33,667 nt of DNA from an uncultured Smithella sp. (lineage in GTDB: Bacteria; Desulfobacterota; Syntrophia; Syntrophales; Smithellaceae): assembly GCA_964351355.1 (NCBI GenBank), contig CAYGNV010000004.1, forward strand, positions 1 through 33,667, in the 5' to 3' direction. This document shows, one piece after another, positions 8,754-31,241 of this stretch; position 1 is the stretch's first letter, and every line of letters starts with the position of its first letter. The position numbers and the translations under genes are program-made. The notes beneath the pieces were generated by a model, which saw only the letters and a list, made by a program, of their open reading frames with translations, had not been told where the DNA came from and did no database searches.

Positions 8754-10274
8754 ATGACGCTTGAATCTTTAAATATGTTAGATTATGTTCATCAATCGTT
8801 CAACGCCTCAACGAACAGGATTGACCGCTCTCAGATTGGTCAATTCCTCACTCCCGCTTCCATCGCTGATTTCATGTCGTCGTTGTTTGAAACCAGAACA
8901 AAAGAAGTCAGGATTCTCGATCCTGGCGCTGGTGCGGGTGTTCTTTTTGCAGCCTGCGTGGACAAGTTGCTATCGCAAGAAAAGCGACCGTCTTCGATAG
9001 AAATCGTTGCATACGAAACTGACAGAGTTATTTTACCGCATCTTCAGGAAACCATGGATCGTTGCGCAATCCTTTGTGCATCCCATAATGTCAGTTTCAA
9101 TGGAACCATAAAAGAAGATGATTTTATTGCTTCCGCAATATCTGAAACGGAAGAATCTCTTTTTGTTGTTCCGGGAAGGCGTTTCACCTATGCCATCCTC
9201 AATCCGCCCTACAAAAAAATCAATGGCGAGACAAATATAAGAGCTATGCTTTATTCCGCGGGGTTAGAAGTGGCGAACCTTTACGCTGCCTTTGTGTGGT
9301 TATCGATGCGCTTGCTGGAACCGGGAGGACAAATAGTGGCGATTACACCCCGGAGTTTCTGTAACGGGCCTTATTTTAAAAAGTTCCGAGTTGCCTTTTT
9401 GGATATGTTGAGTCTCAGGCAAATTCATTTGTTCAATTCACGAAATAAAGCTTTCGGTGATGACAACGTGCTTCAGGAGAATATTATTTATTCCGCTATT
9501 CGTAAAATCGAAAAGCCGAAACAGGTCGTCATTTCGGCATCAGAAAGCGATGATTTTAATCATGCCAGTATTTTGAACATACCCTATGACCAAGTCGTAT
9601 ATCCTAATGATCGGGATGTTTTTATTCATCTCGGTATTGATGACACAGCTATTTCCGTCACGGCGCAAATGCAGTGTTTTAAGTTCACCCTCGACAAACT
9701 GAATTTGAGTGTTTCCACAGGACGCACTGTGGATTTCAGGGCAAAGGAACATTTGCGTCAATCCCCGGAGAAAGGCACCGTACCGCTCATACATCCGTGT
9801 CATTTTCAAGACGGTTTTATCAGTTGGCCTCTCGAATCAGGAAAGAAACCAAATGCCATTGTAGCTTTGTCTGAAACGTCCGATCTCTTCGTAGAAAAAG
9901 GTTATTACGTCCTCATAAAAAGATTTTCTTCAAAAGAGCAGAAGCGGCGCGTAATGGCAGCGGTATATGACCCTTCCAAAATTGATGCTTCGTTTGTCAG
10001 TTTTGAAAATCATCTGAATTACTTCCACCGGGATGGCAAAGGATTGCCTGAGAAGCAGGCAAAAGGACTTGCCCTATATCTTAACTCCTCATCTGTTGAT
10101 CAGTACTTTCGGTTGTTTAGCGGACACACTCAGGTTAATGCTACAGACTTACGTAAATTACCGTACCCAAGCGAAAGACAACTTATGAGATTTGGCAATC
10201 ATGTGCAGAAGCGAATGCCAGATCAGGAAACTATTGATGAGATTATACGGAAGGAGTGCGGAGATTGTGCCTAA
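8754..10274 (+). CDS. N6-adenine DNA methyltransferase of a PstI/BsuBI-type type II R-M system
   Basis: GQFLTPASIADFM, ILDPGAGAGVLF (motif I), AILNPPYKKI (motif IV). At 506 aa it is close to the size I recall for M.PstI. It sits immediately upstream of, and overlaps, a BsuBI/PstI-family endonuclease gene. Confidence 0.85.
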   Translation: MTLESLNMLDYVHQSFNASTNRIDRSQIGQFLTPASIADFMSSLFETRTKEVRILDPGAGAGVLFAACVDKLLSQEKRPSSIEIVAYETDRVILPHLQETMDRCAILCASHNVSFNGTIKEDDFIASAISETEESLFVVPGRRFTYAILNPPYKKINGETNIRAMLYSAGLEVANLYAAFVWLSMRLLEPGGQIVAITPRSFCNGPYFKKFRVAFLDMLSLRQIHLFNSRNKAFGDDNVLQENIIYSAIRKIEKPKQVVISASESDDFNHASILNIPYDQVVYPNDRDVFIHLGIDDTAISVTAQMQCFKFTLDKLNLSVSTGRTVDFRAKEHLRQSPEKGTVPLIHPCHFQDGFISWPLESGKKPNAIVALSETSDLFVEKGYYVLIKRFSSKEQKRRVMAAVYDPSKIDASFVSFENHLNYFHRDGKGLPEKQAKGLALYLNSSSVDQYFRLFSGHTQVNATDLRKLPYPSERQLMRFGNHVQKRMPDQETIDEIIRKECGDCA

Positions 10275-11235
10275 AAAAGCAAACAAGAAGAAGGCTGACC
10301 AAAAAATACAGGACGCTTTGGATATACTCAATGCCTTGGGGTTGCCCAGACAGCAACTTAATGACCGATCGGCGCTAACACTGCTTTCTTTACTGGCCAT
10401 TGAACCGGAAACTGGATGGGCGGATGCGAGTAATCCTTTAATGGGCATTACGCCTATGATGGATTTCTTTCTTGAATACTATGGGAAGAAATATGCACCA
10501 AACACCCGGGAAACAGTGCGTCGTCAAACAGTGCATCAGTTTCTCCAAGCTGCGCTGATTGTCGCCAATCCCGATAAACCATCAAGACCGACCAATAGTC
10601 CCAAAGCTGTTTATCAGATTGAACCGTCCATTCTGAAGTTGCTAAGAAGTTTCGGGAAGCCGGAATGGGAGGAAAATCTACAGAAATATCTGCGCACAGT
10701 GAAAACCCTCAAGAAGTTATATGACCGAGAGCGGGAGATGCGGCGCTTGCCCATCAGGCTGGCAGAGGGGCAGGAGATAAAACTTTCTCCCGGTGGACAG
10801 AATGTTCTGGTTAAAAAAATTGTTGAAGATTTCTGCTCTCTATTTACGCCCGGTGGGTGGATGATTTATGTAGGCGACACCCAATTAAAATGGTCATTTT
10901 ACGATGCAAAATCTCTGGCAGCGCTAGGCGTTACGATAGAAGAACATGGCAAAATGCCCGATGTGGTTGTGCATCACGTAAAGAAAAACTGGCTGATTCT
11001 GATTGAAGCTGTAACCAGTCACGGACCGGTTGACCCAAAGCGACATCAGGAATTAAAGAAATTATTTTCCGGATCGTCTGCGGGGTTGGTATTTGTGACG
11101 GCCTTTATTGATCGACACGCCATGCTGAAATATCTAAACGACATTTCCTGGGAAACAGAGGTCTGGGTTGCCGATTCTCCAACGCACTTAATCCACTTCA
11201 ATGGTGAGCGTTTCCTCGGGCCATATGAGGGTTAA
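10267..11235 (+). CDS. type II restriction endonuclease, BsuBI/PstI family
   Basis: The GTG at 10267 (GGAAGGAG upstream, 8-nt overlap with the MTase stop) gives 322 aa. The C-terminal half HGKMPDVVVHHVKKNWLILIEAVTSHGPVDPKRHQELKKLF...VTAFIDRHAMLKYLNDISWETEVWVADSPTHLIHFNGERFLGPY matches my memory of the conserved BsuBI/PstI C-terminal domain. The track start at 10192 is likely too early. Confidence 0.85.
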   Translation: MPKKANKKKADQKIQDALDILNALGLPRQQLNDRSALTLLSLLAIEPETGWADASNPLMGITPMMDFFLEYYGKKYAPNTRETVRRQTVHQFLQAALIVANPDKPSRPTNSPKAVYQIEPSILKLLRSFGKPEWEENLQKYLRTVKTLKKLYDREREMRRLPIRLAEGQEIKLSPGGQNVLVKKIVEDFCSLFTPGGWMIYVGDTQLKWSFYDAKSLAALGVTIEEHGKMPDVVVHHVKKNWLILIEAVTSHGPVDPKRHQELKKLFSGSSAGLVFVTAFIDRHAMLKYLNDISWETEVWVADSPTHLIHFNGERFLGPYEG

Positions 11236-11404: not shown

Positions 11405-12904
11405 TTACTTTATAAAGTTTTTGGCCAGCGCTTCGCGATCTCCTCCGCTCATGCCGGCGATGTATTTCACCAGCTTCTTACGCGATTCAATATCGTATTG
11501 TGTGGTAATGGCAATCTGTTCCATAATCGGCGAACCGCCGCCGTTGTAAGCGCCGATGTTCCGGATACCGCCCGTCGCCGAACACAAAACATCGCCGAGG
11601 TAACGCCACAACTGTGCCTGATCTTCAGCGGGCATATTGGAATTGCGTTTGGTGTATTTGAGCAGCGAATCGCCTGTCACGGGATTCATAAAATCTTTCT
11701 CGTGGGGGAAGGTAGCCGTGACGCCGCCGGAGATATCACAGAGGATCTCCGCTTCTCGAAAGACCGCCTCGCCAGACAGGCAGCGGCCGACATTGCAGTA
11801 GATAGAATGGGGAACGAAGGAACCGGGACCATACGGCACGAAGCCCTTGCCGGGCATGAAGACCTGGGGTCCGCCCAGATCGGATGCCGTATAACCAGCG
11901 GCGTAGCCCAGCTCCGTCACCATGATGATTTCCGCCAGCTTTTCCCTGACATGCGATTCCTTGTGGATATTGTTTGCTTCGGCAGCCAGAGCTGCCGTGC
12001 CAAGGATAACGTCACCGATAGCCGGTTTGCAACCGGAATAGGAATGTCGGTGAAACAGTGCAAAAAGAAGGGCATTGACTCCGCCGTGCTGCCATTCCCC
12101 AGCCAGAAAGACCCGCTCCCAGGGAATAAAACAATTTTCAAAAATCATATAAGAGTCCGTAGATCCCGGCATAAAACCGCGCTGGTAATGTTCTCGTTCC
12201 CGCAGGGTGTGGATGGTCACGACCTGTTTGAGACCGTCCCAGTCGCCGGGAACGGCAAAAGCCAACGCATAGTCCTTGTCCTCGGGACGCATGGCACGGG
12301 TGGGCACAACCAGAACTTCGTCCGCCACGGAGGCCTCCGAAATGTGCACTTTGCACCCTTCGACAACGATGCCGTCCTTCAGGCGCTCCTTGATGTAAAC
12401 ATAAGAGCCTGGATTAGGCTGGTCCGCAGGACGCAGCATGCGGTCGCCTTTTGTGTCCGTTTGGGCACAACAGCCGATGAGGTCTTCGGTCTGGAATCGG
12501 GTCAACCATTTTTTGAAATTCTCGTGATATTGCGTTGCCCCGTTATTCATCTTATCTGCTTCAAAGGAAACATTATAAATGGAATTGGCGGCATCAATGC
12601 CCATACAACGCTGAATACAACCGCCAACCTTCTGGCAGAGCATGCGCGTCATATCCTGCTTGCGATGCAGGTCTTCTTTGTTTTGATGGATATGGGTAAA
12701 GCGGTTGATGCGTTCTCCGGTTAAATGGGAAATGGCAGTAAGCAAATCCTGATTTTCCGGTTTTTCCGCTTCGTCGTAAGTGGTGCCGATGGTGTTAAGA
12801 CACCTCATCTGCAATTCGTCGTCGCGGTCGATAAGCTGGCCGTCGAAGTACAAATTACGCTTCATCTTGGTAAGCCCCTTGATGTAATCTTTTTTTGTTC
12901 TCAT
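11405..12904 (-). CDS. 4-hydroxybutyryl-CoA dehydratase / vinylacetyl-CoA isomerase family protein (HpaB-fold, AbfD-like)
   Basis: 499 aa. GGCIQRCMG (C-x3-C) and FHRHSYSGCK (H-x6-C) match the [4Fe-4S] ligand pattern I recall for Clostridium aminobutyricum AbfD. The overall HpaB/AbfD-like N-terminus is YFDGQLI...NRFTHIHQ. The 448-aa + strand ORF 11378..12724 is an antisense shadow. Confidence 0.7.
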   Translation of the reverse strand: MRTKKDYIKGLTKMKRNLYFDGQLIDRDDELQMRCLNTIGTTYDEAEKPENQDLLTAISHLTGERINRFTHIHQNKEDLHRKQDMTRMLCQKVGGCIQRCMGIDAANSIYNVSFEADKMNNGATQYHENFKKWLTRFQTEDLIGCCAQTDTKGDRMLRPADQPNPGSYVYIKERLKDGIVVEGCKVHISEASVADEVLVVPTRAMRPEDKDYALAFAVPGDWDGLKQVVTIHTLREREHYQRGFMPGSTDSYMIFENCFIPWERVFLAGEWQHGGVNALLFALFHRHSYSGCKPAIGDVILGTAALAAEANNIHKESHVREKLAEIIMVTELGYAAGYTASDLGGPQVFMPGKGFVPYGPGSFVPHSIYCNVGRCLSGEAVFREAEILCDISGGVTATFPHEKDFMNPVTGDSLLKYTKRNSNMPAEDQAQLWRYLGDVLCSATGGIRNIGAYNGGGSPIMEQIAITTQYDIESRKKLVKYIAGMSGGDREALAKNFIK

Positions 12905-16407: not shown

Positions 16408-17835
16408 CTATCCTAATTTCTTGGCCAGTAATTCTCGGATGATTTTCGGATTGGCCTTGCCGCCGGAAGCCTGCATCACCTGGCCGATCAGAAAGCCCAT
16501 GGCTTTGCCCTGGCCGGCGCGGAAATCGGCAACCGCCGCTGGTTGTTCACTTAAAACCTTGTCGATCAGCGCATCGAGGGCAGTAACATCAGAAACCTGC
16601 TTAAACCCTTTAGCGCTGATGATCTCTTCCGGGGATTCGTCACTGTCAAACAGATGCGTCAGAACCTCTCTTGCCGCGTTGGCGTTGATCTCATCCTGCG
16701 AAAGCATTTTCAGCAGCGCGGCAAAGCGCGCGGGGGTTACAGGGGAACTGCTCAGTTCCTGCTTGCGGTCTTTGACGGCCGGGATTAGTTGCGTGGTGAG
16801 CCAGTGCATGGCTGTGCGCGGTGCGGTCCCTTGTCCAATCAGCGCCTCAAAGTAGGCTGCAACTTCCGGGTCGGAACTCAAAAAAGTGGCTTCCTCGCCG
16901 GTCAGTCCGTGCTGTGTGATAAAGCGTTCGGCCCTTGCGGCGGGCATTTCGGGAAGACGCGAACGCGTCTTCTCGATCCAGTCTTTCGATAATTCAATGA
17001 CCGGAACGGTGGGATCAGGAACACAGGGGCCTTCAAACTTGCCGCGCATCGCCAACGTGACTTTTTTGTCCGGGTCCCATAAGCGGGTATGCAGAATAAC
17101 CGCTTCGCCTGTCTGGACAGCCGTGCTCTGGCGGGTAATTTCGTATGAGATGGCATCGGCCACATGACGGATGGAATTCATGTTTTTAACTTCCACTTTG
17201 GTATTCATCTGGCTGGTTCCCTTGGGACGTATGGAAATGTTGGCATCGACGCGCATCGTGCCGTTTTCCATGCTGCACTCGGAAGATCCCACGTAACGCA
17301 CCTGCGTGCGCAGCGCCTTGAGAAATTCCATCGCCTGATAGGGCGTGCGGAAATCCGGTTCTGTGACGATTTCCACCAGCGGAGAGCCTGCGCGGTTGAA
17401 GTCCACCAGGCTGATTGGCAGGCGTCCTTCCATTTCATGCATCAGCTTGGCGACGTCTTCTTCCATGTGGATATGATGAATGCGCAGTTTTTTGGATTTG
17501 CCGTCCTCATCCGTAATGTCGATGGCGCCGCCGCGCGAAAGGGGGAGATGGGCCTGGGATAACTGGTAGCCTTTCGGCAAATCCGGATAGTAATAAACCT
17601 TTTGGTCAAAGGCGCTTCGGGGCTGAAGTTGTGCACCCAGGCCCAGACACAAAAGCGATGCTTTTTCCAGCGCGTCCTGGCTCAACCTGGGAATGGCGCC
17701 TGGAAACCACAGGCAGGTCGGGCAGGTATTGGCGTTGGGTTCGTCGCCGGGATTGTTGGGGCAGTCGCAAAATAATTTCGTTTTGCAATTGAGTTCAACA
17801 TGGATTTCTAATCCGATGACCGCTTCAAATTCCAT
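16408..17835 (-). CDS. gatB: Asp-tRNA(Asn)/Glu-tRNA(Gln) amidotransferase subunit B
   Basis: MEFEAVIGLEIHVELN..TKLFC.C, DFNRAGSPLVEIVTEPD, the YqeY-like tail ...FLIGQVMQASGGKANP. 475 aa. The start shares 1 nt with the upstream stop (TAATG). Confidence 0.95.
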   Translation of the reverse strand: MEFEAVIGLEIHVELNCKTKLFCDCPNNPGDEPNANTCPTCLWFPGAIPRLSQDALEKASLLCLGLGAQLQPRSAFDQKVYYYPDLPKGYQLSQAHLPLSRGGAIDITDEDGKSKKLRIHHIHMEEDVAKLMHEMEGRLPISLVDFNRAGSPLVEIVTEPDFRTPYQAMEFLKALRTQVRYVGSSECSMENGTMRVDANISIRPKGTSQMNTKVEVKNMNSIRHVADAISYEITRQSTAVQTGEAVILHTRLWDPDKKVTLAMRGKFEGPCVPDPTVPVIELSKDWIEKTRSRLPEMPAARAERFITQHGLTGEEATFLSSDPEVAAYFEALIGQGTAPRTAMHWLTTQLIPAVKDRKQELSSSPVTPARFAALLKMLSQDEINANAAREVLTHLFDSDESPEEIISAKGFKQVSDVTALDALIDKVLSEQPAAVADFRAGQGKAMGFLIGQVMQASGGKANPKIIRELLAKKLG

Positions 17836-19037
17836 TACTGTTTGCCTCCTTCGCGCGTCTTCAAAATATGTTCACCCAACGCGAGTAGCCGCGCGTCACT
17901 GAGTCTTGGCCCCGCCAGTTGAAATCCTGATTGCGCCGTGCCTGACGGAGGCGGCAGATACAATGCGGGCTGACCGGTGACATTGGCAAAAGCCGTCAAG
18001 GCGAATTGCTCGTACGTATCGGCCAGCTGTGCGGGTTCGCCGGATGAGGAACCGCTTGAAGCCGGAAACAACAGAAAGTCCGCCTGCGACGTGACCTTCT
18101 CCATGTCCGCAAGCAGACGCGCGCGGATGCGGCAGGCGTCTTCAGAAGCTTTGTAGCGTTGAAACTGGAAAAATGCGCCCTGAAGCAGATAGCTTTTCAA
18201 AAGTGAGCCAAAGGCCGCGCTTCGTGAAGAGAGATACATGTCGTTCCAGTTTTTGGCGCCGGGCGCGCGCTCGCCGTAACGGACAGAATCATAACGTCCG
18301 GTTGAGGAGGAGGCCTCCACGGAGCCGATGATTTTATGGACGAGCAAAAAAAGAGAAAAGTCGGGCAGAGACATTTCCTTGATGGGAAAGCCCGCTTTTT
18401 TGAGTTCATCGACCGAGGCTTGAAACCTGGTTTGTTCGCCTTCGGGTAAAGCGCTTGGCGCTTCCGTAATGACCCCGATGGTTGTTTTTTGCGGGTCGAT
18501 TTTTTGCGGTGAAAAATCCGGGGCCTTTTCATCGGGGAGTGAAAAATCCAGTTCGTCCGGACCGGCGATGGTCTTCAGAATCTCCTGAATGTTTTTCAGA
18601 CTGCCGGAAACAAGTCCGCAGCATTCCATCGACGGAATCAGACCAATGATGCCGAAGTGCGACACCAGGCCGTAACTGGGTTTGAAACCGCAAACGGCAG
18701 CAGCCGAGGCGGCCAGACGGCTTTCGCCCATCAAATCTAAAACCAGTTCTGCATCGGCAGCCTGTCCTTTGAGCGCCTCACCGGCCTTGCTGCCCGTGAG
18801 ACCAAACCCGAATTCACTCATACGGGTTGAACCGCACAAAGAGGCCCCGGCTTGATGCAGCCGCTGTACAAGCGTTGCGTCTTCCAACGCTTTAAAATTA
18901 ATCAGCGCGTTTGAACCGGCGTCTGTCGGCCAGCCCGCCGCCGAGATGTTGGGTTGAATCGCAATTTTTAACCCCTGCAAAGAACCGCTGCCGGAGGCGG
19001 CGGTTTCGGGATTGCGATAGAAAAAAATAGAATCCAT
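17835..19037 (-). CDS. GatA-like amidase-fold protein, shortened and apparently lacking the Ser-cisSer-Lys catalytic triad
   Basis: At 400 aa it is shorter than the roughly 485 aa typical of GatA. It is colinear with GatA (MSEFGFG, CGFKPSYGLVS, FANVTGQPALYLP). IKDNI is IQPNI, the GGSSGGSAAAVA block is absent, and DTGGSIR is DLMGESR. AGGGAGA RBS. It sits in the gatA position between aspS-gatC and gatB. Confidence 0.75.
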   Translation of the reverse strand: MDSIFFYRNPETAASGSGSLQGLKIAIQPNISAAGWPTDAGSNALINFKALEDATLVQRLHQAGASLCGSTRMSEFGFGLTGSKAGEALKGQAADAELVLDLMGESRLAASAAAVCGFKPSYGLVSHFGIIGLIPSMECCGLVSGSLKNIQEILKTIAGPDELDFSLPDEKAPDFSPQKIDPQKTTIGVITEAPSALPEGEQTRFQASVDELKKAGFPIKEMSLPDFSLFLLVHKIIGSVEASSSTGRYDSVRYGERAPGAKNWNDMYLSSRSAAFGSLLKSYLLQGAFFQFQRYKASEDACRIRARLLADMEKVTSQADFLLFPASSGSSSGEPAQLADTYEQFALTAFANVTGQPALYLPPPSGTAQSGFQLAGPRLSDARLLALGEHILKTREGGKQ

Positions 19038-19051
19038 GAAGATTTCTCCCT

Positions 19052-21172
19052 TTATTCCAGAATGCTGGCGACTTTAAAGTAATTGCCCTTAACCGAAGGC
19101 GCGCTCTTGAGCAACTTGCCTGTTTGTGACAGGGCCGAGCGTTTTTCTTCAGTTCCCGGGCGCGTGCGGTTGGCGACAGGGACAACCGTGCAGATCGGCT
19201 CTTCGCTGCCCGCCTTTTCGGCGGCAAGCCCTGCCAGCTTTCCGGCCTGAACAAGCATCTCCTCCATTCCGGGGCGCTCTTCTGCCGTAATGCCGATGCG
19301 CGACACCCAGGACAGATGATCGATCTGGTTTTCCTTTTCGGCTGTTCCGGGCAAAACATCCTGGCCGCCCAGATTCAACAGCCCCAATTCGGCCAGCTGC
19401 TCGCGTTTCACCGCAGAGGGCGCGCCGGTCAGGGGACAGCTGGCGCTGCGGTTTTTGGGAAAAGCGATCACCTCGCGGATAGACGGGGTTTGCAGAATCA
19501 TCGACACGGTGCGGTCCATGCCAAGGGCCAGCCCGCCATGCGGCGGTGCGCCGAAATCAAAAGCCCGCAGGAAAAAGCCGAACTTTTCCTTGGTCTCTTC
19601 TTCAGTCAGTCCCAGCGAGGCAAATATTTTGCGTTGCACATCGCGGTCGTTGATGCGGATGCTGCCGCCGCCCAGTTCCTCGCCGTTCATGACCAGATCG
19701 TAGGCTCGTGAGCGCAGCGTCAGCAGTTCTTCAATATTTTTCGGATCGAAATCGATGCGGTCCGGTGCGGTAAACGGATGGTGGCTGGAGGTGACACCCC
19801 CTTCATCGGTGGGTTCAAACAGCGGGAATTCCGTGACCCAGACCGGATAAAAGCTATTGGCGGGAATGAGCCCCAAACGATTCGCCAGATGCAGGCGCAA
19901 TTGGCCGAGTACCGACGTGACAATGCTGTATGAGGGATCGGCGATCATAATCAGGACATCCCCGTCGGCCACGTCGAATTTTTTATGCAACGATTCCAAT
20001 TCCTGTTTGCTGAAAAACTGAACGATATTGGATTCGAGTTTTCCGCCTTCGGCGCGCATCCAGGTCATGCCCTTGGCGCCGAATGACGGCGCGATTTCCT
20101 TGGCATATTCATTTTGCAGGACATTCTTACTAAGCTTTTCGGACTGGCCTTTTATGTTGATGCCCTTGATGCAGCCGCCGCGCTGCATCATCTGGCGGAA
20201 GATCGAATAATTCGTTTTCAAAAACACATCCGTCACATCGACAAAACGCAGGCCGAAGCGCAGATCGGGGCGGTCGGAGCCGGTCGTGTCCATCGCCTCC
20301 GCATAGCTCATGCGGGCGAAGGGCCGGGAAAGCGCAATGCCGCCGACGGCGAACATCTTGACGGTCAGTTCTTCAATCAGGTCATAGAGAAATTCTTCAT
20401 CAATGAAAGAGGCTTCAATGTCAAGCTGGGTAAATTCCGGCTGCCGGTTGGGACGCAGATCTTCATCGCGGAAGCAGCGCGCCAGCTGAAAATAGCGTTC
20501 CATGCCGCCGATCATGAGCAGTTGTTTGAAGAGCTGCGGCGACTGGGGGAGAGCGTAAAAATTCTGCGGATGGACGCGGCTGGGCACCAGGTAATCGCGT
20601 GCGCCTTCGGGTGTGCTTGCCGTCAATACCGGCGTTTCGATTTCCAGAAAGCCCCTGGAGTCGAGAAACTCTCGGACGCATTGAAATATGCGGTGCCGGG
20701 CCATGAGATTGTCCCGCATCTGCGGACGACGGATATCCAGATACCGGTACTGGAGCCTTAAGTCCTCAGCCACGTTATCTGCACCCGCGGTAGCCGCGCC
20801 TGCGACCATGGCTTTGTCGGAAACGGCAAAAGGCAGAGCGTCCGATTCGGAAAGCACAGTCAACTCCGTGACCATCACTTCAATATTTCCTGTTTCGATG
20901 TTTGGATTTTCCGCGCCATCGAGCCGCTTTTTGACTTCGCCCGAAACCGCGATGCAATATTCGGCGCGCAGCGCGCCCGCCTTCTGGCAGACGTCTGCTG
21001 CCAAGACTTCGGGGCTGAACATTATCTGCATAATGCCGCTGCGGTCACGCAGATGGATAAACAGCAGGCCGCCGTGATCCCGGAAGGCATCCACCCAGCC
21101 GCAAAGCAGCACCCTGCGTCCGACATCATCGGCAGTCACTTGCCCGCAAAAGACACGTTGGGAAAAAAGCAT
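19052..21172 (-). CDS. aspS: aspartate--tRNA ligase (bacterial type with GAD insertion) fused to a C-terminal GatC-like domain
   Basis: The AspRS core includes FIHLRDRSG, LRLQYRYLDIRR, FLEIETPVLT.STPEGARDYLVPSR, FYALPQSPQLFKQLLM, RCFRDEDLR.NRQPEFTQLD and GGLALGMDR. After about aa 598 come an 18-aa linker and 90 aa (IDHLSWVSRIGITAEE...EP...NRTRPGT...LLKSAPSVKGNYFKVASILE) resembling GatC. The total is 706 aa, versus about 590-600 for typical bacterial AspRS. Confidence 0.85.
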   Translation of the reverse strand: MLFSQRVFCGQVTADDVGRRVLLCGWVDAFRDHGGLLFIHLRDRSGIMQIMFSPEVLAADVCQKAGALRAEYCIAVSGEVKKRLDGAENPNIETGNIEVMVTELTVLSESDALPFAVSDKAMVAGAATAGADNVAEDLRLQYRYLDIRRPQMRDNLMARHRIFQCVREFLDSRGFLEIETPVLTASTPEGARDYLVPSRVHPQNFYALPQSPQLFKQLLMIGGMERYFQLARCFRDEDLRPNRQPEFTQLDIEASFIDEEFLYDLIEELTVKMFAVGGIALSRPFARMSYAEAMDTTGSDRPDLRFGLRFVDVTDVFLKTNYSIFRQMMQRGGCIKGINIKGQSEKLSKNVLQNEYAKEIAPSFGAKGMTWMRAEGGKLESNIVQFFSKQELESLHKKFDVADGDVLIMIADPSYSIVTSVLGQLRLHLANRLGLIPANSFYPVWVTEFPLFEPTDEGGVTSSHHPFTAPDRIDFDPKNIEELLTLRSRAYDLVMNGEELGGGSIRINDRDVQRKIFASLGLTEEETKEKFGFFLRAFDFGAPPHGGLALGMDRTVSMILQTPSIREVIAFPKNRSASCPLTGAPSAVKREQLAELGLLNLGGQDVLPGTAEKENQIDHLSWVSRIGITAEERPGMEEMLVQAGKLAGLAAEKAGSEEPICTVVPVANRTRPGTEEKRSALSQTGKLLKSAPSVKGNYFKVASILE

Positions 21173-21612: not shown

Positions 21613-21951
21613 ATGACAGAAGAAAAAGACAAATTAGATATCCTGTTAAAGTGTACAGGTTTTGAATGGGATGAACATAATTCTAATAAAATTTGGATTA
21701 AACACCATGTTTCTCCTTCCGAATGTGAGCAGACATTTTTTAATATCCCTTTAATAATTTTTGACGATATAGATCACTCTGCCACAGAGAAACGCTACTA
21801 TGCACTTGGCTATACTGATGGGATAAAATATTTATTTATCGCTTTTACTTTAAGAAATAAAAAAATCCGTGTAATTTCTGCCAGAGATATGAATCGAAAA
21901 GAAAGGAAAGAATATGAGCTCCATAAAGAAAATACCAAAATTCAAAAGTGA
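21613..21951 (+). CDS. brnT: BrnT family toxin (DUF497)
   Basis: FEWDEHNSNKIWIKHHVSPSECEQTFFN ... YALGYTDGIKYLFIAFTLRNKKIRVISARDMNRKERKEY is the typical DUF497/BrnT layout. 112 aa. Confidence 0.8.
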   Translation: MTEEKDKLDILLKCTGFEWDEHNSNKIWIKHHVSPSECEQTFFNIPLIIFDDIDHSATEKRYYALGYTDGIKYLFIAFTLRNKKIRVISARDMNRKERKEYELHKENTKIQK

Positions 21952-22186
21952 AGATGAAGAAAGAACTTTTTGGGCAACACATGATTCAACAGAATATATG
22001 AATTGGAAAAAAGCAAAAAAAGTTATGTTATCAAATCTTAAACCTTCGGTAAAATCAATTTCACTTCGTCTCCCTGAATCAATGATTGAAGAGCTTAAGC
22101 TTCTTGCAAATAAAAAAGATGTTCCATATCAGTCTTTGTTAAAGATATTTCTTGCGGAAAGAATCGGAGAAGAATTGAAAATTTAA
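21914..22186 (+). CDS. brnA: BrnA family antitoxin (RHH/CopG-like)
   Basis: IPKFKSEDEERTFWATHDSTEYM ... ISLRLPESMIEELKLLANKKDVPYQSLLKIFLAERI is the typical BrnA. It overlaps the brnT 3' end. Confidence 0.8.
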   Translation: MSSIKKIPKFKSEDEERTFWATHDSTEYMNWKKAKKVMLSNLKPSVKSISLRLPESMIEELKLLANKKDVPYQSLLKIFLAERIGEELKI

Positions 22187-22527: not shown

Positions 22528-22755
22528 ATGAACACTGCACAAACCACGGAAAACATTAGCCACCAGGAACTTACTCTCCTGGAAAAACTTCGGGTGTTGC
22601 CCCCGGATAGAGTTCATGAGGTAGAGGATTTTGTCGATTTTCTGAGGCTTGCAGATGAAGACCGGCGGCTGATCCGGGAAGCGGCAAAGCTATCCGAAAA
22701 TGCTTTTTCTGCTGTGTGGGATAATCCGGAGGATGCCGCATATGACCGGCTATGA
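22528..22755 (+). CDS. antitoxin (DUF2281-like) of the MazF/PemK module
   Basis: 75 aa. LRVLPPDRVHEVEDFVDFL is typical of small DUF2281-type antitoxins. It overlaps the toxin start by 14 nt. Confidence 0.65.
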   Translation: MNTAQTTENISHQELTLLEKLRVLPPDRVHEVEDFVDFLRLADEDRRLIREAAKLSENAFSAVWDNPEDAAYDRL

Positions 22756-23080
22756 GTTCGGCGACATCGTTCTGATACCTTTTCCATTCACCGATCAAAC
22801 AACAACTAAGAAACGGCCTGCCGTGGTGGTCAGCTCAGCGGCTTATCATCGTTATCATCCCGACATTATTCTCATGGCCATAACCAGTCAGGTAAAATCA
22901 AGCATGGCGTGCGGCGAAGTATTACTGACCCAATGGAAAGCCGCCGGTCTTCTTAAACCGTCCGTCATAAAACCCGTCTTCACAACCGTAGAAAAAAATC
23001 TTGTCATAAAAAGTCTGGGGCAACTCCACGAAGATGATCAGCAAGCCCTCAAAAAAGCCTTACAGATTATTCTGGGATAA
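22742..23080 (+). CDS. mazF: type II toxin, MazF/PemK family endoribonuclease
   Basis: From ATG 22742: MTGYEFGDIVLIPFPFTDQTTTKKRPAVVVSS...ILMAITSQV...LKPSVIKPVFTTVEKNLV. This is the PemK/MazF SH3-like fold signature (G.I....FPF.D....K.RPA.V.S). 112 aa. Confidence 0.85.
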   Translation: MTGYEFGDIVLIPFPFTDQTTTKKRPAVVVSSAAYHRYHPDIILMAITSQVKSSMACGEVLLTQWKAAGLLKPSVIKPVFTTVEKNLVIKSLGQLHEDDQQALKKALQIILG

Positions 23081-23589: not shown

Positions 23590-25041
23590 TTATTGATCCC
23601 TTGTTGCGGGTTTGGCGCCTTTCGTCTGGATGCTTTTTTGAGTGTCTGCCGACCACCCGCCACCTAGCGCTTTTATCAGCAAAGCGGCCGCTCTCATACG
23701 CTGGCCGTTGATGCTGATGGCTGTCCTTTCATTAGACAAGGCAAATGTCTGGGCGACGACCACGCTCAGGTAGCTGACAATACCGGCTCGATACTGGTTG
23801 GTTGTGAGCTGGACGGACTCGCGCGCGGCTTGGACGGCCTCCTGTTGCACCCGGGCTTCTTCCTCCAGAATCCGCAGCGCGGCCAGATTGTCTTCCACGC
23901 TCTGGAAAGCCGTGAGCACGGTCTGTCTGTAATAGGCCACCGTGCCGTCATATGCCGCCTGGGCCTGGTCGGTCTTTGCCTGACGCGCTCCGCCATCAAA
24001 TATTGTCGCAGCCGCGACCAAAGGGCCTATGGCCCAGAAAAAATGAGGCGATGTAAACAGGTTGGCCAGTTCTACGCCTTGATAACCCAGCGATCCTGAA
24101 AGCGTGATCGAAGGATAGTAGGCCGCCTTGGCCACCCCGATCTGGGCGTTGGCTGCCGCCATTTTTCTTTCTGCCGAGGCGATATCCGGCCGGCGCTCCA
24201 GCAAGTCGGAGGGAAGGCTCACCGGTATCTTGATAGGCGGCCATTGGAATTCAGCGGGCGGCAGTGTAAGGTCTGCGGGCGGCTTCCCCGTCAGAATTGC
24301 AATGGCATGTTCCAGCTGAGCGCGATAAATACCGAGGTCCATCGCTTGAGCCTCTACCGATTTCAGTTGCATCCGGGCCTGAACAGTGTCTGCTTTTGCC
24401 GCGACGCCCGCATTGTATCGGTTTTCCGTCAGCTTCAGCGCTTTTTCGTAGGCTGCGACCGCCTCGTCAAGATTTTTTTTCTGTTCATCAATCATTCGCA
24501 ACTGGTAATAGTTGAGCGCCAGTTCCGTCTGCATGGACAACCGCATGGCCTGGAGGTCAGCAAATGAGGCCTGCGTGGAAGCATGGCCCGCCTCCACCTG
24601 GCGCCGCACTTTTCCCCAGATATCCAATTCCCATGAAGCGCCAAGCGACAGCTGATGGACATTGGCGATGTCACGCCCTGTTGAGGGTCCGCGAGACCGC
24701 TGGTAGGCGGTATCTGCGCCTACGACGGGAAAATATTTTGATCTGGCCAGTTGAATTTGCGCCATGGCCTGGCGGTATTGTGTCTCCGCAAGGGCGATAG
24801 ACTGGTTGGAAACATTAACCTGTTCCACAAGCCCATTCAGGACGGGATCGTTGAACATTTCCCACCATTTTCCCCGGGCGGTGTCGTCTTGCGGCTGGGC
24901 CTGTTTCCAGCCCTTGATCTCCTTAAAGGCAGCCGGCACGTCGGTTTCCGGCCTGGCATAATTCGGCCCCACCGAGCAGGATGACAGGAGGAACGGGGCA
25001 ATGACCGCGGCCGCCATCATGAGAAGAAGCGGCTTGGGCAT
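23590..25041 (-). CDS. RND efflux outer-membrane factor lipoprotein (NodT family), in frame with and not separated by a stop from upstream mdtC
   Basis: MPKPLLLMMAAAVIAPFLLSSCSVGPNYARPE is a signal peptide with lipobox LSSC plus the canonical GPNY.RP start of NodT OMFs. 483 aa from ATG 25041. Confidence 0.85.
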   Translation of the reverse strand: MPKPLLLMMAAAVIAPFLLSSCSVGPNYARPETDVPAAFKEIKGWKQAQPQDDTARGKWWEMFNDPVLNGLVEQVNVSNQSIALAETQYRQAMAQIQLARSKYFPVVGADTAYQRSRGPSTGRDIANVHQLSLGASWELDIWGKVRRQVEAGHASTQASFADLQAMRLSMQTELALNYYQLRMIDEQKKNLDEAVAAYEKALKLTENRYNAGVAAKADTVQARMQLKSVEAQAMDLGIYRAQLEHAIAILTGKPPADLTLPPAEFQWPPIKIPVSLPSDLLERRPDIASAERKMAAANAQIGVAKAAYYPSITLSGSLGYQGVELANLFTSPHFFWAIGPLVAAATIFDGGARQAKTDQAQAAYDGTVAYYRQTVLTAFQSVEDNLAALRILEEEARVQQEAVQAARESVQLTTNQYRAGIVSYLSVVVAQTFALSNERTAISINGQRMRAAALLIKALGGGWSADTQKSIQTKGAKPATRDQ

Positions 25042-28000
25042 CGTAAGTCCAGGTCTCTTTTTTTCAAACCGGGCTCTGAATCGGTCCAGGTACAGATAGA
25101 TCACCGGCGTGGTATATAAGGTGAGCATCTGGCTCACGATCAGCCCGCCGATAATGGAAATGCCCAGGGGGCGGCGGATTTCCGACCCCACTCCGGCGCC
25201 GAGCGCCAGGGGAAGCGCCCCGAGCATGGCGGCCATGGTCGTCATCATAATGGGCCGGAATCTTAACAGACAGGCCTGGTAAATAGCATCCATAGGACTT
25301 TTTCCCTCCTTGCGTTCCGCTTCCAATGCAAAATCCACCATCATGATTCCGTTCTTTTTGACGAGGCCGATGAGGAGGATAATCCCGATCAACGCGATCA
25401 CACTCAGTTCGGCGCCAAAAATGAGAAGCGCCAGGAGCGCCCCCACCCCCGCCGAGGGAAGAGTGGACAGAATTGTAATCGGATGAATATAGCTTTCATA
25501 AAGAATTCCCAAAACGATATACACGGCAATCAGGGCTGCCAGAATCAGCAGGGGCTGGTTTGCAAGCGATTCCTTGAATGCCTTGGCGGTTCCCTGAAAA
25601 CTGCCCCGGATCGTGGGAGGCATGTTCATCTCCCGCATGGCCGTTTCTACGACGGTAATGGCCTCCCCCAGGGTGACGCCGCGCTCCAGATTGAACGAAA
25701 TCGTCACCGAGGGGAGCTGACTCTGATGATTGACGGTCAGAGACGTCGTTTTGTTTTCAAACCGGGCAAAGGCGGCGAGCGGAACGGCCTCGCCGTTCGG
25801 GGGCGTCACGTAAACATGATGGAGCGTCTCCGGGTGCTGCAAGAAGCGCGGCTCGACTTCCATCACCACGCGGTACTGATTCAGAAGCGTGTAGCTGATC
25901 GAAATCTGCCTCTGCCCGAAGGCGTCATAGAGCGCCTCGTCGATCAGGGCGGGCCGGATGCCGAAGCGGGCGGCCGCATCCCGGTCGATAACGACCGAAA
26001 CCTGGAGCCCCTTCTCCTGAAGATCGCTGTTCACATCGGTCAGTTCCTTCATTCCGCCCATATGTCTGCGCATCTTGGCGGCCCACACATTCAGTTCCGC
26101 GAGGTTTTCCCCCTGAAGCGTATATTGATAAAGAGCGCCGCTCGATCTTCCCCCGATCCGGAGGTCCTGAACAGGCTGCAGAAAGGACGGCGCTCCCGGG
26201 ACCATGTAGAGTTGCCGGCGCAGCCGCGCAATCACATCCTGGACGGATGATGCTCGTGATTCGGGGGGCGTAAGAGCAATGTTCATCCTTCCTTGGTTTG
26301 TGCCCGTGCCGCCCCCCGTGTAGGCTGATACCGAAGTGACATCAGGATCTTTCCTGACGATCTCCGTGATAATGGTCAGCTTTCTGCGCATGGTCTGAAA
26401 AGAGGTTGTCTGGTCTGCGTGAATAATGGCGCCGATCCGTCCTGTATCCTGCTCCGGAAAAAAGCCTTTAGGGATAAAAATGAAAAGGGTAATACTGAGG
26501 ACGACCATGGCGAGCGTCAAAGACAGCATCGTCCGGGGATGGCGCAAGGCAAAACCAAGGCTCAAATCGTAAGCGTGGTGCATCCGGTCGAATGCCCGCG
26601 CTGCGGCCTCGTAAAAGCGCCTTTTCTTTTTGGGGTTTTCGGACTCCGTCTTCGATTTTAAAAGGGCTGCGCACATCATGGGTGTCGTGGTCAGGGACAT
26701 TACGAGCGAGATGAGGATGGCCACCGAGAGGGTGATTGCGAATTCGCGGAAGAGTCGTCCGACGATCCCCTTCATCAACAGGATGGGAATAAATACGGCA
26801 ACAAGCGAGATCGTCATGGACACAACAGTGAAAGCGATTTCCCGCGATCCTTGCAGGGCCGCTTCGAGGGCCGTCGCCCCTTTTTCCATGTAGCGCGTTA
26901 CATTTTCAAGGACGACGATTGCGTCGTCCACGACAAAGCCGGTTGAAATCGTCAGCGCCATGAGGGAAAGGTTGTTGAGGCTGAACCCCAGCAGGTGCAT
27001 GATGGCAAAGGTCCCGACGATGGAAACCGTTACGGCCACGCCGGGGATCAACGTGGACCGGAAATCCCTGAGGAAAATAAATACAACCAGGATGACGAGC
27101 AGCAGAGAGATCACCAGCGCCTGTTCCACTTCCCGAAGCGAGCCGCGGATCGAAGGCGTCCGGTCCTGAGTGACGGCCAGTTCAATCCCCCCCGGCATGG
27201 CGGCTGTCAGCTGCGGGATCAGCTCCCGGATGCGATCGACGGTTTTGATGATATTGGCGTCCGGCTGGCGGTAGATCAGAACACTGACGGCCGGTTTGCC
27301 GTTGACGATTCCGAAGGTGCGCATATCTTCCACGGAATCATGGACGTAGGCGACATCCGTCAGCTTCACCGCGGCGCCGGACCGGTAGCTCACGATCAGA
27401 TTCCGATAGTCCCTGGCTTTGTGAAGCTGATCGTTGGTCTGGATCTCCCAGGTTTTCTCGTCATTCATCAACTGCCCCTTGGGACGGTTAACGTTTGAGC
27501 TGGCCAGGACGCCGCGCATCTCCCTCAGGTTAATGCCGTACTTGTTGAGCGCCATGGGATTCATTTCCACCCGGACAGCCGGGAGTGATCCACCGCCGAT
27601 GTAAACATGGCCGACGCCCTCCACTTGACATAACTTCTGCTGAAGGATGGTGGAGGCCGCATCATACATCTTCGGCGGGTCCACCGAATCGGATGTCAGG
27701 GCGAGGATCAGGATCGGGGCCTCGGCGGGATTGACCTTGCGGTAAGTCGGATTGCCATGGAGATCTGAAGGAAGGCTCCCCAGAGCGGCATTGATCGCAC
27801 CCTGAACATCGCGGGCCGCCCCATCGATGTTTCTGTCCAGATCGAACTGCACCACGATATTCGTGTAGCCGCGGTTGCTCATGGAGGTCATTTCCGTCAC
27901 GCCGGCAATGTTACCCAACTTCCTTTCCAGCGGCGCCGCGACCGATGTCGCCATCGTCTCGGGATCACCGCCGGGCAGCCTTGCCGTAACCAGGATCGTG

Positions 28001-28128
28001 GGAAAATCGATGCGGGGCAGGGACGAGACAGGCAGCAACTGGAACGCGACGATTCCGGCGAGCGCGAGCCCGATGGTCAGAAGCGTGGTCGCAACGGGGC
28101 GATGGATGAAGAGTTTCGATATGTTCAT
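25042..28128 (-). CDS. mdtC: RND multidrug efflux permease MdtC-like (1029 codons, no stop codon of its own)
   Basis: [65 protein letters not shown] closely tracks E. coli MdtC as I recall it. ATG 28128 overlaps the mdtB stop (ATGA). The extra 12 codons of the track ORF (from 28164) lie inside mdtB. Confidence 0.85.
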
Positions 28129-31100
28129 GGCCGCTTTAGACTCCCGTTGTTTGTGGCAGGCCAAACGAACCGCGCTTTTTGCATGCGGCGCGCCAGGCGA
28201 TCAAACGCGAGATAGATAACCGGCGTTGTATAAAGCGTGAGAATCTGGCTGATCACGAGCCCGCCGACAATCGAAATGCCCAGGGGATGGCGCAACTCCG
28301 AGCCGACGCCCGTTCCGAGCGCCAGGGGAAGCGCTCCGAGAAGGGCCGCCATGGTGGTCATCATAATGGGGCGGAACCGCAGAATACTCGCCTGGTAGAT
28401 CGCCTCTTCGGGCGGCAATCCGTCTTTGCGCTCGGCTTCCAGGGCGAAGTCCACCATCATGATTCCGTTCTTTTTCACAATGCCGATCAGGAGGATGATG
28501 CCGATGACGGCGATGACGCTCAGGTCCGTGTGGAAGAGGATCAGCGCGATGATCGCCCCCACCCCCGCGGAAGGCAGCGTGGAGAGAATCGTGATCGGGT
28601 GAATGTAGCTTTCATACAGGACGCCGAGCACGATATAGACGACAATAAGCGCGGCCAGGATCAGGAGGATCTCGTTGTTCAGAGCGGATTGAAAGGCTTT
28701 GGCTGTCCCCTGAAAGCTTCCCCGGATACTCGGGGGGACACCGATCTGCCGTGCGGTTTCCTCGACGGTTTCGACCGCCTTGCCGAGTGAGACGCCGGGC
28801 GCCGGATTGAACGAAACCGTCACTGCGGGAAACTGCCCCTGGCGGTTGATGACGAGTGGTCCGGTGGTCTCTTCCACCCTCGTGATCGAGCCCAGGGGGA
28901 TGCGCGCCCCGTTCGTCCCGCGCAGGTGGATCGAATGGATATCCTGTGGATCTTTCTGGAACTGGGGCTTTGCGACCAGAACAACTTTATACTGGTTGGA
29001 TTGTGTGAATATGGTGGACACCTGGCGCTGCCCGAAGGCGTTGTAGAGTGTGTCGTCGATGAGCTGGGGCGTGATTCCGAAGCGGGAGGCGCTGGCGCGG
29101 TCAATGGTGATCGATGCGCGCAACCCCTTGTCCTGCTGGTCGCTCGTGACGTCCCTCAATTCCGGCCGGTTGCCGAGCGTTTCCACCAGGCGGGGAGCGA
29201 AATCATTCAGAATCTGGATATCCGGGCATTCCAGGGTATAATTAAACTGTGTCCGGCTGATGCGGGGATCAACCGTGAGGTCCTGAACCGGCTGCATGAA
29301 AAGGGTAATTCCCTCGACCGCGGCCAGTTCCCGCTTGAGCCGAAAAATGATCTCCTGCGCTCCGGTCCGGCGCTCTTCCAGAGGTTTCAGGTTGATCAGG
29401 ATGCGGCCGCTGTTCAAGGTCGTATTGATCCCGTCCACGCCGATAAACGAGGACAGGCTTTCGACGGCTGGATCTTTTAGAATCGTCTGGGCCAGCGCCT
29501 GCTGCCGCTTTGCCATCGCGGCAAAAGAGATCGACTGCGGCGCTTCCGAAATGCCGAGGATGACGCCGGTATCCTGAATGGGGAAGAAGCCTTTGGGGAC
29601 GACCACATAAAGAATAACCGTGAGAACAACCGTCACCCCCATCACCATAAGCGTTAGTCCCTGATGTTTCAGCACCCACTGCAGTGTCCTTCCGTAAGAG
29701 GCAATCACCCGGTCGAACCACTGCCGGGATGCGGCGAAAAACCGTCCCTGCTCGGATACCGGTTTGTGTTTCAGTATCCTGGCGCACATCATCGGCGTCA
29801 GCGTCAGCGAAACGACCGCCGAGATGAGGATCGTCACGCCGAGCGTGATCGCGAATTCCCGGAAAAGCCTTCCCACCACGTCCCCCATGAAGAGGAGCGG
29901 GATGAGGACGGCGATCAGGGAGACCGTCAGAGAGAGGATCGTGAAACCGATCTGCTTGGAACCTGTGAGCGCCGCCTCAAGGGGGGGCATCCCCTGCTCG
30001 ACATAGCGTCCGATGTTTTCGATCATGACGATGGCGTCATCGACTACAAAGCCGGTGGAGATTGTCAGCGCCATGAGGGACAGGTTGTTGAGGCTGAAGC
30101 CCATCAGGTACATGACGCCGAACGTGCCGATGAGGGACAGGGGAACGGCCACGCTGGGGATGGTGGTCGCGGCCAGGCTCCTGAGAAAGAGGAAAATAAC
30201 CAGAACGACGAGCGCAACGGCCAGAAGGAGCTCAAACTGCACGTCCCTGACCGATGCGCGGATTGTCGTTGTCCGGTCGGTCAGCACCGTGACCTTCACC
30301 GAGGGGGGAAGAGAGCTTTGAAGCTGCGGTAAAAGCTTTTTGATCCGGTCAACGACCTTGATGACGTTGGCCCCCGGCTGGCGCTGAATGTTCACAATAA
30401 CGGCCGGGGTGGCGTTCATCCATGCCGCCTGATTAACGTTTTCGATATGGTCAATGGCTTCGGCGACATCGGAAAGCCGGACAGGGGCGCCGTTTCTGTA
30501 AGTGATAATGATTTTTGCAAACTCGGCGCCGGAAAAGAGCTGGTCATTGGCGCCGATATTGTAAGCCCGGTGGGGGCCGTCGAAATTTCCTTTGGCCTGA
30601 TTGACGTTTGCCGCAACGATTGCCCCGCGCAGGTCTTCCAGCGTCAGGTTGTAAGCGGCCAGGGCGGTTGGATTGGCCTGTATTCGCACAGCCGGACGCT
30701 GTCCGCCACTGATTGTGACCAGACCCACATCGGGGAGTTGGGATATCTTCTGAACAAAGCGTGTGTCCGCCATATCCGCCACCTGGGAAAGGGGGAGGGT
30801 GTCGGAGGTGAGCGCCAGAGTCAGGATCGGGGCATCCGCCGGGTTTACCTTGCTGTAGATCGGCGGCGTCGGGAGGTCTTTCGGCAAAAAAGTATAAGCG
30901 GCATTGATTGCCGCCTGGACTTCCTGTTCGGCCACATCCAGACTCAGATCGAGTGAAAATTGAAGGGTGATGATCGAGCTGCTGCCCGAGCTCGACGAGG
31001 TCATCTGCTTCAAGCCGGGCATCTGGCCGAAATGGCGCTCCAGCGGCGCGGTGACCGCTGTCGCCATGACCTCCGGACCGGCGCCGGGATAGAAAGTCCG

Positions 31101-31241
31101 CACCTGAATGGTCGGGTAGTCAACGGTCGGCAGGGCCGAAACCGGCAGCTGGGTGTAAGCCACGAGGCCCGCCAGGATGATGGCGATCATCAGGAGCGTG
31201 GTCGCAACCGGGCGAAGGATAAAAATCCGGGAGATATTCAT
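28125..31241 (-). CDS. mdtB: RND multidrug efflux permease MdtB-like
   Basis: [66 protein letters not shown]...[23 protein letters not shown] is near-colinear with E. coli MdtB as I recall it. 1038 aa. The start overlaps the mdtA stop (ATGA). Confidence 0.9.

Follow-up and report, generated by a model that had tools for sequence, protein, structure and literature searches.

A GatA homologue without a glutaminase site is conserved between an AspRS-GatC fusion and GatB

In a 33,667-nt stretch of DNA from an uncultured Smithella sp. (assembly GCA_964351355.1, contig CAYGNV010000004.1, positions 1 to 33,667; hereafter the window, whose numbering is used throughout), the place of gatA is taken by a gene for a 400-aa GatA homologue, here called GatA', in which the catalytic Lys, cis-Ser and nucleophilic Ser of the amidase signature are missing. 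As judged from its sequence, GatA' is a predicted pseudo-enzyme, unable to bind or to hydrolyse glutamine by the amidase-signature mechanism. A previous sequence-only reading of this DNA had proposed that the gatA slot holds a pseudo-amidase which is still expressed and kept; this proposal is now well supported by the loss of substrate-binding residues, by the existence of a large and old family of similar proteins, and by purifying selection. An amidotransferase with a dead subunit of this kind appears to be in use in hundreds of species of anaerobic bacteria, which would have to take the nitrogen from another source. We consider it very probable that the dead subunit is retained as part of the complex.

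The gene is part of a tightly packed operon on the minus strand, in which aspS, coding for a fusion of aspartyl-tRNA synthetase (AspRS) with GatC, is followed by a 14-nt spacer holding the sequence AGGGAG, by the GatA' gene and by gatB. The features of the operon are:

19052-21172, minus strand: aspS, whole open reading frame (ORF) of the AspRS-GatC fusion, 706 aa, with stop codon TAA at 19052-19054
19379-21172, minus strand: AspRS body of bacterial type, with OB anticodon-binding domain, class II core and GAD insertion (Pfam PF01336, PF00152, PF02938)
19334-19378, minus strand: linker of about 15 residues between AspRS and GatC
19055-19333, minus strand: complete GatC domain at the C-terminus of AspRS (residues ~614-706), located with the tail profile described below
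19046-19051, minus strand: AGGGAG as ribosome-binding site, separated by 8 nt from the ATG of GatA' and placed just past the aspS stop
17835-19037, minus strand: ORF of GatA', the predicted glutaminase-dead GatA homologue, 400 aa
16408-17835, minus strand: gatB, coding for a canonical GatB of 475 aa with GatB_N and GatB_Yqey domains

The good ribosome-binding site and the TAATG overlap with gatB that had been noticed earlier are both present, the stop of GatA' sharing TAATG with the ATG of gatB at 17833-17837 when the sequence is read directly. The N-terminus of GatA' is about 40-50 residues short with respect to GatA, in agreement with the earlier estimate of about 40; a hidden upstream start is excluded, as the stop-to-stop frame adds just 12 codons, which overlap the end of aspS. 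The ORF that precedes GatA' terminates at the natural C-terminus of GatC, and the arrangement amounts to gatC-gatA-gatB joined to a preceding aspS. Scans of the window for promoters and terminators gave signals at background level, and no Rfam matches were found in it.

Loss and rebuilding of the glutaminase site

The roles of the active-site residues of GatA have been described (PMC2330236, PMC4027206, 10.1101/733030), and residues are numbered here as in Staphylococcus aureus GatA, whose reference sequence matched chain 2df4_A at 485/485 residues. We have mapped onto this sequence, with MAFFT, 130 short homologues of the GatA' type and 85 representatives of canonical GatA. The positions of GatA' that correspond to the catalytic and glutamine-binding residues are:

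18951-18956, minus strand: Gln28-Pro29 (codons CAA CCC) at the position of catalytic Lys79-Asp80; Gln in 127/130 family members
18786-18791, minus strand: junction Ser83/Lys84 of a 22-residue deletion comprising the GGSSGGS loop with cis-Ser154; alignment columns 145-166 empty
18717-18737, minus strand: DLMGESR motif, residues 101-107, with Glu105 (GAA codon, 18723-18725) at the position of nucleophile Ser178
18624-18626, minus strand: Glu138, at S. aureus Asp211 in the alignment, invariant in the family
18336-18338, minus strand: His234 at the position of glutamine-binding Tyr309; His in 129/130
18189-18191, minus strand: Tyr283 at the position of Arg358, which binds the glutamine carboxylate; Tyr, Phe or Leu in the family
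18003-18005, minus strand: Phe345 at the position of glutamine-binding Asp425; Phe in 127/130

An independent alignment with HMMER against the solved GatA chains gave the same picture: IAIQPNI of GatA' pairs with IAVKDNI, a gap of about 20 residues opens at GGSSGGSA, and DLMGESRLAAS is aligned to the nucleophile stretch. Ser154, Ser155 and Gly156 are gaps in all 130 short homologues, and Glu105 is found in 130/130 proteins and in 86/86 genomic copies, while 71 of the 85 canonical representatives keep Lys79 and likewise 71/85 keep Ser178. Thus the three losses that had been suggested from the sequence by itself (AIQPNI for G(I/V)KDNI, a deletion of about 22 residues that takes away the cis-Ser block, and Glu in place of the nucleophile) hold in full, and neither the HMMER nor the MAFFT alignment places Lys, Ser and Ser at the catalytic positions; the same triad is missing from all or nearly all members of the family. 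Tyr309, Arg358 and Asp425, which hold glutamine (10.1101/733030) and of which Arg358 and Asp425 have equivalents in the yeast enzyme (PMC4027206), are all replaced in GatA'. These substrate-site losses, the AspRS-GatC fusion and the new invariant residues of the pocket go beyond what had been noticed before. Since the deletion and the Glu at the nucleophile position are common to all 130 short homologues, unlike the canonical representatives, the pattern is a property of the family and not a product of chance.

Profile searches place GatA' within the amidase-signature proteins but at a distance from functional GatA. The match to the Pfam Amidase model (PF01425) is split into two stretches and reaches 164 bits (cut-off 27); TIGR00132, the equivalog model of gatA, is the best NCBIfam match, and its score of 215 bits falls short of the cut-off of 481. 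The fold is predicted to be that of GatA: the AlphaFold model of GatA' is of high confidence (predicted local distance difference test, pLDDT, 90.5; predicted template modelling score, pTM, 0.92), and the best matches in the PDB according to Foldseek are the GatA chains 3kfu_E, 3h0l_A, 3al0_A and 4wj3_A, with template modelling (TM) scores of 0.88-0.91, which belong to the transamidosomes of Thermus thermophilus, Thermotoga maritima and Pseudomonas aeruginosa and to the GatCAB of Aquifex aeolicus. Operon position, Foldseek and NCBIfam all agree in making GatA' a protein encoded with gatB and gatC and structurally nearest to GatA. Other amidase-signature enzymes rank below the GatA chains. Among them, at ranks 15 and 17, is the AtzE-AtzG 1-carboxybiuret hydrolase (PDB 6C62), which resembles the present case in being a repurposed pair of GatA-like and GatC-like proteins derived from GatCAB, but differs from it because AtzE is active and has no GatB, whereas GatA' is predicted to be inactive and keeps its GatB.

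The residues that have taken the place of the old active site are themselves strongly conserved. In a subset of 20 diverse sequences, with 40-80% identity and 10% of columns invariant, Glu105, Glu138, His234 and Arg107 are all invariant, and Gln28, Phe345, Trp36 and Pro37 fall within the most conserved quarter. Ser136 of GatA' is also invariant in the family, which retains in addition S. aureus Glu125 (Glu75 in GatA') and Arg180; Glu125 we take to be part of the ammonia tunnel. On these grounds, the former glutaminase pocket would seem to be rebuilt, rather than eroded or drifting, and a purely passive scaffold is argued against, because a scaffold would let the residues at the old active-site positions drift instead of fixing new ones. 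One could imagine that the pocket has been rebuilt as a new catalytic site, in which, for example, Ser136, His234 and Glu105 or Glu138 free ammonia from another, probably small and uncharged, amide. The invariance of the replacement residues E105, E138, H234 and S136 is what such a site would display, and the exchange of the residues that bind the glutamine backbone for aromatics speaks of a changed specificity rather than of a pocket simply destroyed. However, the loop with the oxyanion hole and cis-Ser has been deleted outright, the Gly176 turn of canonical GatA has become Met or Leu in the alignment, and the literature that we searched describes no alternative triad for an amidase-signature enzyme; overall, we regard a new catalytic site as improbable.

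A Cys acting as an alternative nucleophile was also considered and rejected, as the cysteines of the 'MECCG' segment are not conserved in divergent members of the family and Cys116 occurs in canonical GatA as well. As a separate observation, residue His127 of this GatA' (18657-18659, minus strand) is a variant common to just a few homologues, in place of the Arg that canonical GatA and almost the whole family carry (S. aureus Arg200, motif VSRFG).

Distribution, integrity and selection

A word-indexed search returned more than 120 clusters of proteins at 66-80% identity to GatA', all of about 399 aa, and an exhaustive search of 50%-identity representatives extended the short forms down to 40% identity, with scores of 309-496 bits. 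Below these there is a gap in the scores, with canonical GatA at 163 bits or less. Among these representatives the deletion is present in all short forms, Lys occurs at the Lys79 position in none of them, and the nucleophile position is nearly always Glu, with a single Gln exception. When the canonical representatives were ranked with a hidden Markov model (HMM) of the GatA' family, the list was flat and no lineage stood out as the parent. JGI labels many of the homologues as GatA subunit A, while sequences from NCBI carry the names 'amidase family protein' or 'hypothetical protein'.

In a scan of one genome per species, about 300 species were found to hold a relative of GatA', among them Syntrophus buswellii strain DM-2 (NZ_CP175563.1) and the benzene degrader ORM2a (CP113000.1), both with complete genomes; the lineages that carry the module are Syntrophales, Desulfobulbus, Syntrophorhabdaceae and Desulfobacterales. 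The order AspRS-GatC, GatA', GatB, with genes abutting or overlapping, is kept in every locus with enough flanking sequence, and can be seen, for example, in Syntrophus buswellii, in ORM2a and, among distant members of the family, in the isolate Desulfobulbus alkaliphilus (GCA_016918545.1), in a Syntrophorhabdaceae metagenome-assembled genome (MAG) and in an uncultured lineage. The fusion protein has a length of 705-706 aa in all the lineages looked up, Syntrophales, Desulfobulbus alkaliphilus and Syntrophorhabdaceae included. The flanking genes differ between lineages. In S. buswellii, a 485-aa ORF adjoining gatB was considered as a candidate canonical gatA and discarded, as it codes for an aldehyde dehydrogenase.

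Two side observations concern these loci. The MAG names in the species scan (Dehalococcoidia, Verrucomicrobia etc.) are those given by the submitters, and among loci L006-L085 there are near-identical modules (56-76% identity, same synteny) labelled as Dehalococcoidia, Chloroflexota, Verrucomicrobia, Acidobacteria, Pirellulaceae and others; this suggests that the odd labels reflect mis-binning or wrong submitter taxonomy, and not wide transfer. In loci L089 and L090 (9221-10450, P0133 lineage), gatB is just 409 aa long against about 475-479 aa elsewhere, which represents either a shortened tail domain or an artefact of gene calling.

All the 86 genomic copies of GatA' that were examined are intact, with zero stop codons. 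We have calculated the ratio of nonsynonymous to synonymous substitution rates (dN/dS) from the 205 pairs with dS between 0.1 and 1, dS being saturated in many other pairs: the median values are 0.26 for GatA', 0.13 for gatB and 0.13 for the AspRS fusion. Selection on GatA' is clearly purifying, but looser than on its catalytic partners, and GatA' combines lost catalytic residues with retained constraint, as a pseudo-enzyme should. Conservation of the degenerate form across relatives under purifying selection, which had been put forward as a check of the initial proposal, is therefore borne out. By the same figures, the idea that GatA' is a decaying pseudogene, or an artefact of assembly or annotation, for which its reduced length and lost catalytic residues would speak, is refuted and retains practically no probability; it fails also because full-length homologues exist at 40-80% identity, the coupling to gatB is kept and the AlphaFold model is confident.

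A proposed Asn transamidosome without glutaminase

The second component of the module is the fusion. The AspRS sequence scores 754 bits with NF001750 and 1348 bits, over its full length, with NF009460 (bifunctional AspRS/GatC). The Pfam GatC match obtained from a single tail sequence is weak (16 bits); a profile built from 12 diverse AspRS tails aligns with residues 6-95 of the 100 residues of S. aureus GatC (2df4_C, E 1.8e-4), and also with 4wj3_C and 3h0l_C. Since the tail profile covers GatC residues 6-95, the tail can be taken as a complete GatC domain. AspRS is thus joined to an amidotransferase subunit by a covalent bond, and since GatC is fused to the AspRS upstream of it, the module has the make-up of a hard-wired Asn transamidosome. 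With regard to the tRNA specificity, the closest solved chains of the AspRS include the Asp/Asn ligases 5w25 and 4wj3_M, with discriminating enzymes nearly equal (306 vs 293 bits), and the RDHGG motif is the same as in P. aeruginosa AspRS; this motif is presumably tied to non-discrimination. Beyond the name of the NCBIfam model, we found in the literature no description of a pseudo-GatA family or of an AspRS-GatC fusion, and the proteome and genome supplements for Syntrophus aciditrophicus and ORM2a contain no relevant entries.

Comparison with known complexes helps to define what is new. With canonical GatCAB (S. aureus 2DF4, A. aeolicus 3H0L) the module shares the C, A, B gene order, the GatA fold (TM ~0.88), a canonical GatB and a full-length GatC; it differs in that GatA' is about 85 residues shorter, without the Ser-cisSer-Lys triad and the Tyr309/Arg358/Asp425 site, and in that GatC is the C-terminal domain of AspRS rather than a free protein. 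As for the Asn transamidosome (T. thermophilus 3KFU, P. aeruginosa 4WJ3), its GatA chains are those best matched by GatA', and the AspRS matches 4wj3_M. In that system AspRS, GatCAB and tRNA-Asn act as one particle, as is proposed for the module; the known complex is non-covalent and has an active GatA, while the module would combine a dead GatA with AspRS and GatC in a single polypeptide. It is synteny and translational coupling that speak for a physical assembly of the A, B and C subunits, which we infer on the strength of these gene-level features.

GatB is intact and includes the tRNA-binding tail (GatB_N 328 bits and GatB_Yqey 150 bits in Pfam; 569 bits with NF004012, whose cut-off is 338). 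This is the main difficulty for the view that the module no longer amidates tRNA and has some other role, such as regulation or stabilisation of AspRS or sequestration of tRNA, with Asn-tRNA being supplied by AsnRS. Loss of the site that supplies nitrogen is in keeping with that view, and so is the presence in many delta-proteobacterial genomes of direct-pathway synthetases such as GlnRS (PMC3927822). But a GatB that keeps its catalytic and tRNA-binding domains, scores far above the cut-off and is under strong purifying selection does not fit with it: a complex with only a regulatory function is unlikely because an intact kinase/transamidase would be needless there. We attach to a non-amidating module a correspondingly low probability.

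The explanation that we favour, and that we hold as quite possible though short of probable, is that GatA' serves as a structural subunit of a tethered Asn transamidosome, which would be the sole such enzyme of the cell and whose GatB would be fed by free ammonia. A scaffold-only GatA supplied with free ammonia was also one of the two functional readings offered by the sequence-only account, and both of them are viable. In this scheme AspRS would charge tRNA-Asn with Asp, the GatC domain at the C-terminus of AspRS would clamp GatA' to GatB, and GatB would phosphorylate Asp-tRNA-Asn with ATP and then amidate it. In the known enzymes GatC is required for the folding of GatA and for the joining of GatA and GatB, and GatB carries out the ATP-dependent activation and the amidation (PMC2330236). 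The residues for hydrolysis and binding of glutamine being absent from GatA', the complex could make no ammonia itself, and for this reason the nitrogen would have to be taken as free NH3/NH4+. Ammonia would probably enter by the rebuilt old pocket, lined by the invariant Glu105, Glu138 and His234 together with Trp36, Tyr/Phe283 and Phe345 and deprived of its covering loop, and proceed through the presumably retained tunnel; the carboxylate and aromatic lining and the loss of the covering loop are the reasons, speculative as they may be, for seeing in it an ammonium entry site. Direct use of ammonia would save the ATP spent by glutamine synthetase for each amide, a saving that could suit energy-limited anaerobes in ammonium-rich habitats.

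Biochemical precedents for this scheme exist. Transamidation is supported in vitro by 20 mM NH4Cl, and a destabilised glutaminase site in yeast GatFAB leads to more NH4Cl-dependent activity (PMC4027206). The mutant in question, with a truncated N-terminal domain of GatF, uses less glutamine and depends more on NH4Cl for transamidation (PMC4027206), and the behaviour proposed for GatA' would be its extreme; the yeast protein, however, was engineered and has its triad intact, while in GatA' the loss is natural and fixed. A role dedicated to asparagine fits with the finding that S. aciditrophicus is among the GlnRS-containing genomes (PMC3927822), because GlnRS makes Gln-tRNA independently of the module. 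Ammonia-dependent counterparts of glutamine amidotransferases include AsnA, as opposed to AsnB, and the NH3-dependent NadE. These carry out the same chemistry from free ammonia, as is proposed here, but in them the glutaminase domain is absent, while in the module it is kept as a conserved subunit of predicted inactivity.

Other data weigh against the scheme. The dN/dS of GatA' is double the value of the neighbouring genes and higher in 205/205 pairs, a weaker constraint than on a catalytic subunit; free ammonia in the cytoplasm may be too low for efficient use; and a dead A subunit can harm an ordinary bacterium, because Tse8, a GatA mimic without glutaminase activity that replaces GatA, is toxic in P. 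aeruginosa (10.1101/733030). Tse8, a type VI secretion toxin of that organism, resembles GatA' in lacking Tyr309, Arg358 and Asp425 and in binding GatB and GatC in place of GatA (10.1101/733030). It differs in having the catalytic triad, in being a toxin for delivery into other cells and in impairing the complex, whereas GatA' is a resident, co-translated partner conserved with its own GatB.

Some of these same data bring forward the principal alternative, already raised by the sequence-only reading, namely that the module forms a second transamidosome with a specialised role, encoded in addition to a canonical gatCAB elsewhere in the genome and possibly also to a standalone AspRS, and that GatA' was first duplicated and then lost its chemistry. 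The fusion of GatC would here prevent the mixing of subunits between complexes, and the role would be conditional or auxiliary, for example ammonia-dependent synthesis of Asn-tRNA or asparagine when ammonium is plentiful, or channelling of tRNA-Asn. Pseudo-enzymes mostly follow duplication, the module brings its own gatB and aspS like a self-contained paralogous set, the doubled dN/dS of GatA' points the same way, and the toxicity of Tse8 suggests that a dead GatA is better tolerated beside a live one. Two gat sets have been annotated in the Firmicute Ca. Propionivorax syntrophicum F70 (a gatC-gatA-gatB operon, plus gatB, gatA and a 'GatC (modular protein)'; PMC7082340, supplement 6), the second set being at most a candidate member of the GatA' family. 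The same supplement lists for Ca. Phosphitivorax F81 hisS-aspS apart, glnS, asnA and a canonical-looking gatB-gatA by mtnA, and the genes of neither organism could be linked to the GatA' family. On the other side, an exact gatC-gatA-gatB order with aspS in front is the outcome expected when a housekeeping operon degenerates in situ, and the AspRS and GatB of the module evolve at a housekeeping pace (0.13) and both pass their equivalog models. Furthermore, scans of the window and of the 85 loci retrieved first (~1 Mb together) gave no second amidase-family ORF, a result with little bearing on the rest of the genomes. A second complex is to us a serious possibility, but on balance a doubtful one.

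A bolder version of the favoured scheme, which we advance only tentatively, is that in Syntrophales and other Desulfobacterota lineages the only tRNA-dependent amidotransferase gave up glutamine, and that the Glu/Glu/His/aromatic pocket is an ammonium-capture site feeding the old tunnel. If this were true, Asn-tRNA-Asn would be made directly from free ammonia, and organisms that live close to the thermodynamic limit would save one ATP for each asparagine. In the textbook view GatCAB depends on glutamine, and a gated tunnel couples its glutaminase to its transamidase; a dead-glutaminase GatCAB that is natural, ancient and widespread would show that the coupling is dispensable, and would offer a natural system for studying the entry of ammonia into the tunnel. 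The AspRS-GatC fusion would be a ready-made stoichiometric transamidosome and should suit structural work. Judging from the annotation names, when the metabolism of syntrophs and sulfate reducers is reconstructed, a step that depends on glutamine may be assumed although it is absent. Should a canonical gatCAB turn out to coexist with the module, we would be dealing instead with the duplication of a translation-related complex and the change of one of its subunits into a pseudo-enzyme.

Other genes in the window

A toxin-antitoxin pair of the BrnT/BrnA type (21613-22186, plus strand) and a toxin of the MazF/PemK type (22700-23080, plus strand) lie on the strand opposite to aspS, immediately upstream of its promoter region. 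They are followed by two adjacent genes for RND pumps (23590-28164 and 28125-31241, both minus strand), which overlap by 40 nt; the first of these ORFs (1524 aa) has an unusual architecture, in which a full AcrB domain is fused to an outer-membrane efflux (OEP/TolC-like) domain.

Two restriction-modification systems are also present in the window. A cassette between cinA and recA (2219-4445, plus strand) consists of an AccI-type endonuclease followed by an N6-methyltransferase; the endonuclease may be truncated, as the match of its ORF is limited to the C-terminal part of the profile (positions 157-356 of 366). The other is a pair placed directly after alaS (8754-11235, plus strand), in which the ORFs of an Eco57I/N6-type methylase and of a BsuBI/PstI-type endonuclease overlap by about 80 nt. 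Finally, a protein of 499 aa encoded at 11405-12904 on the minus strand belongs to the HpaB family, which in strict anaerobes includes 4-hydroxybutyryl-CoA dehydratase; an identity of this kind would fit a syntrophic degrader of fatty acids or aromatics.

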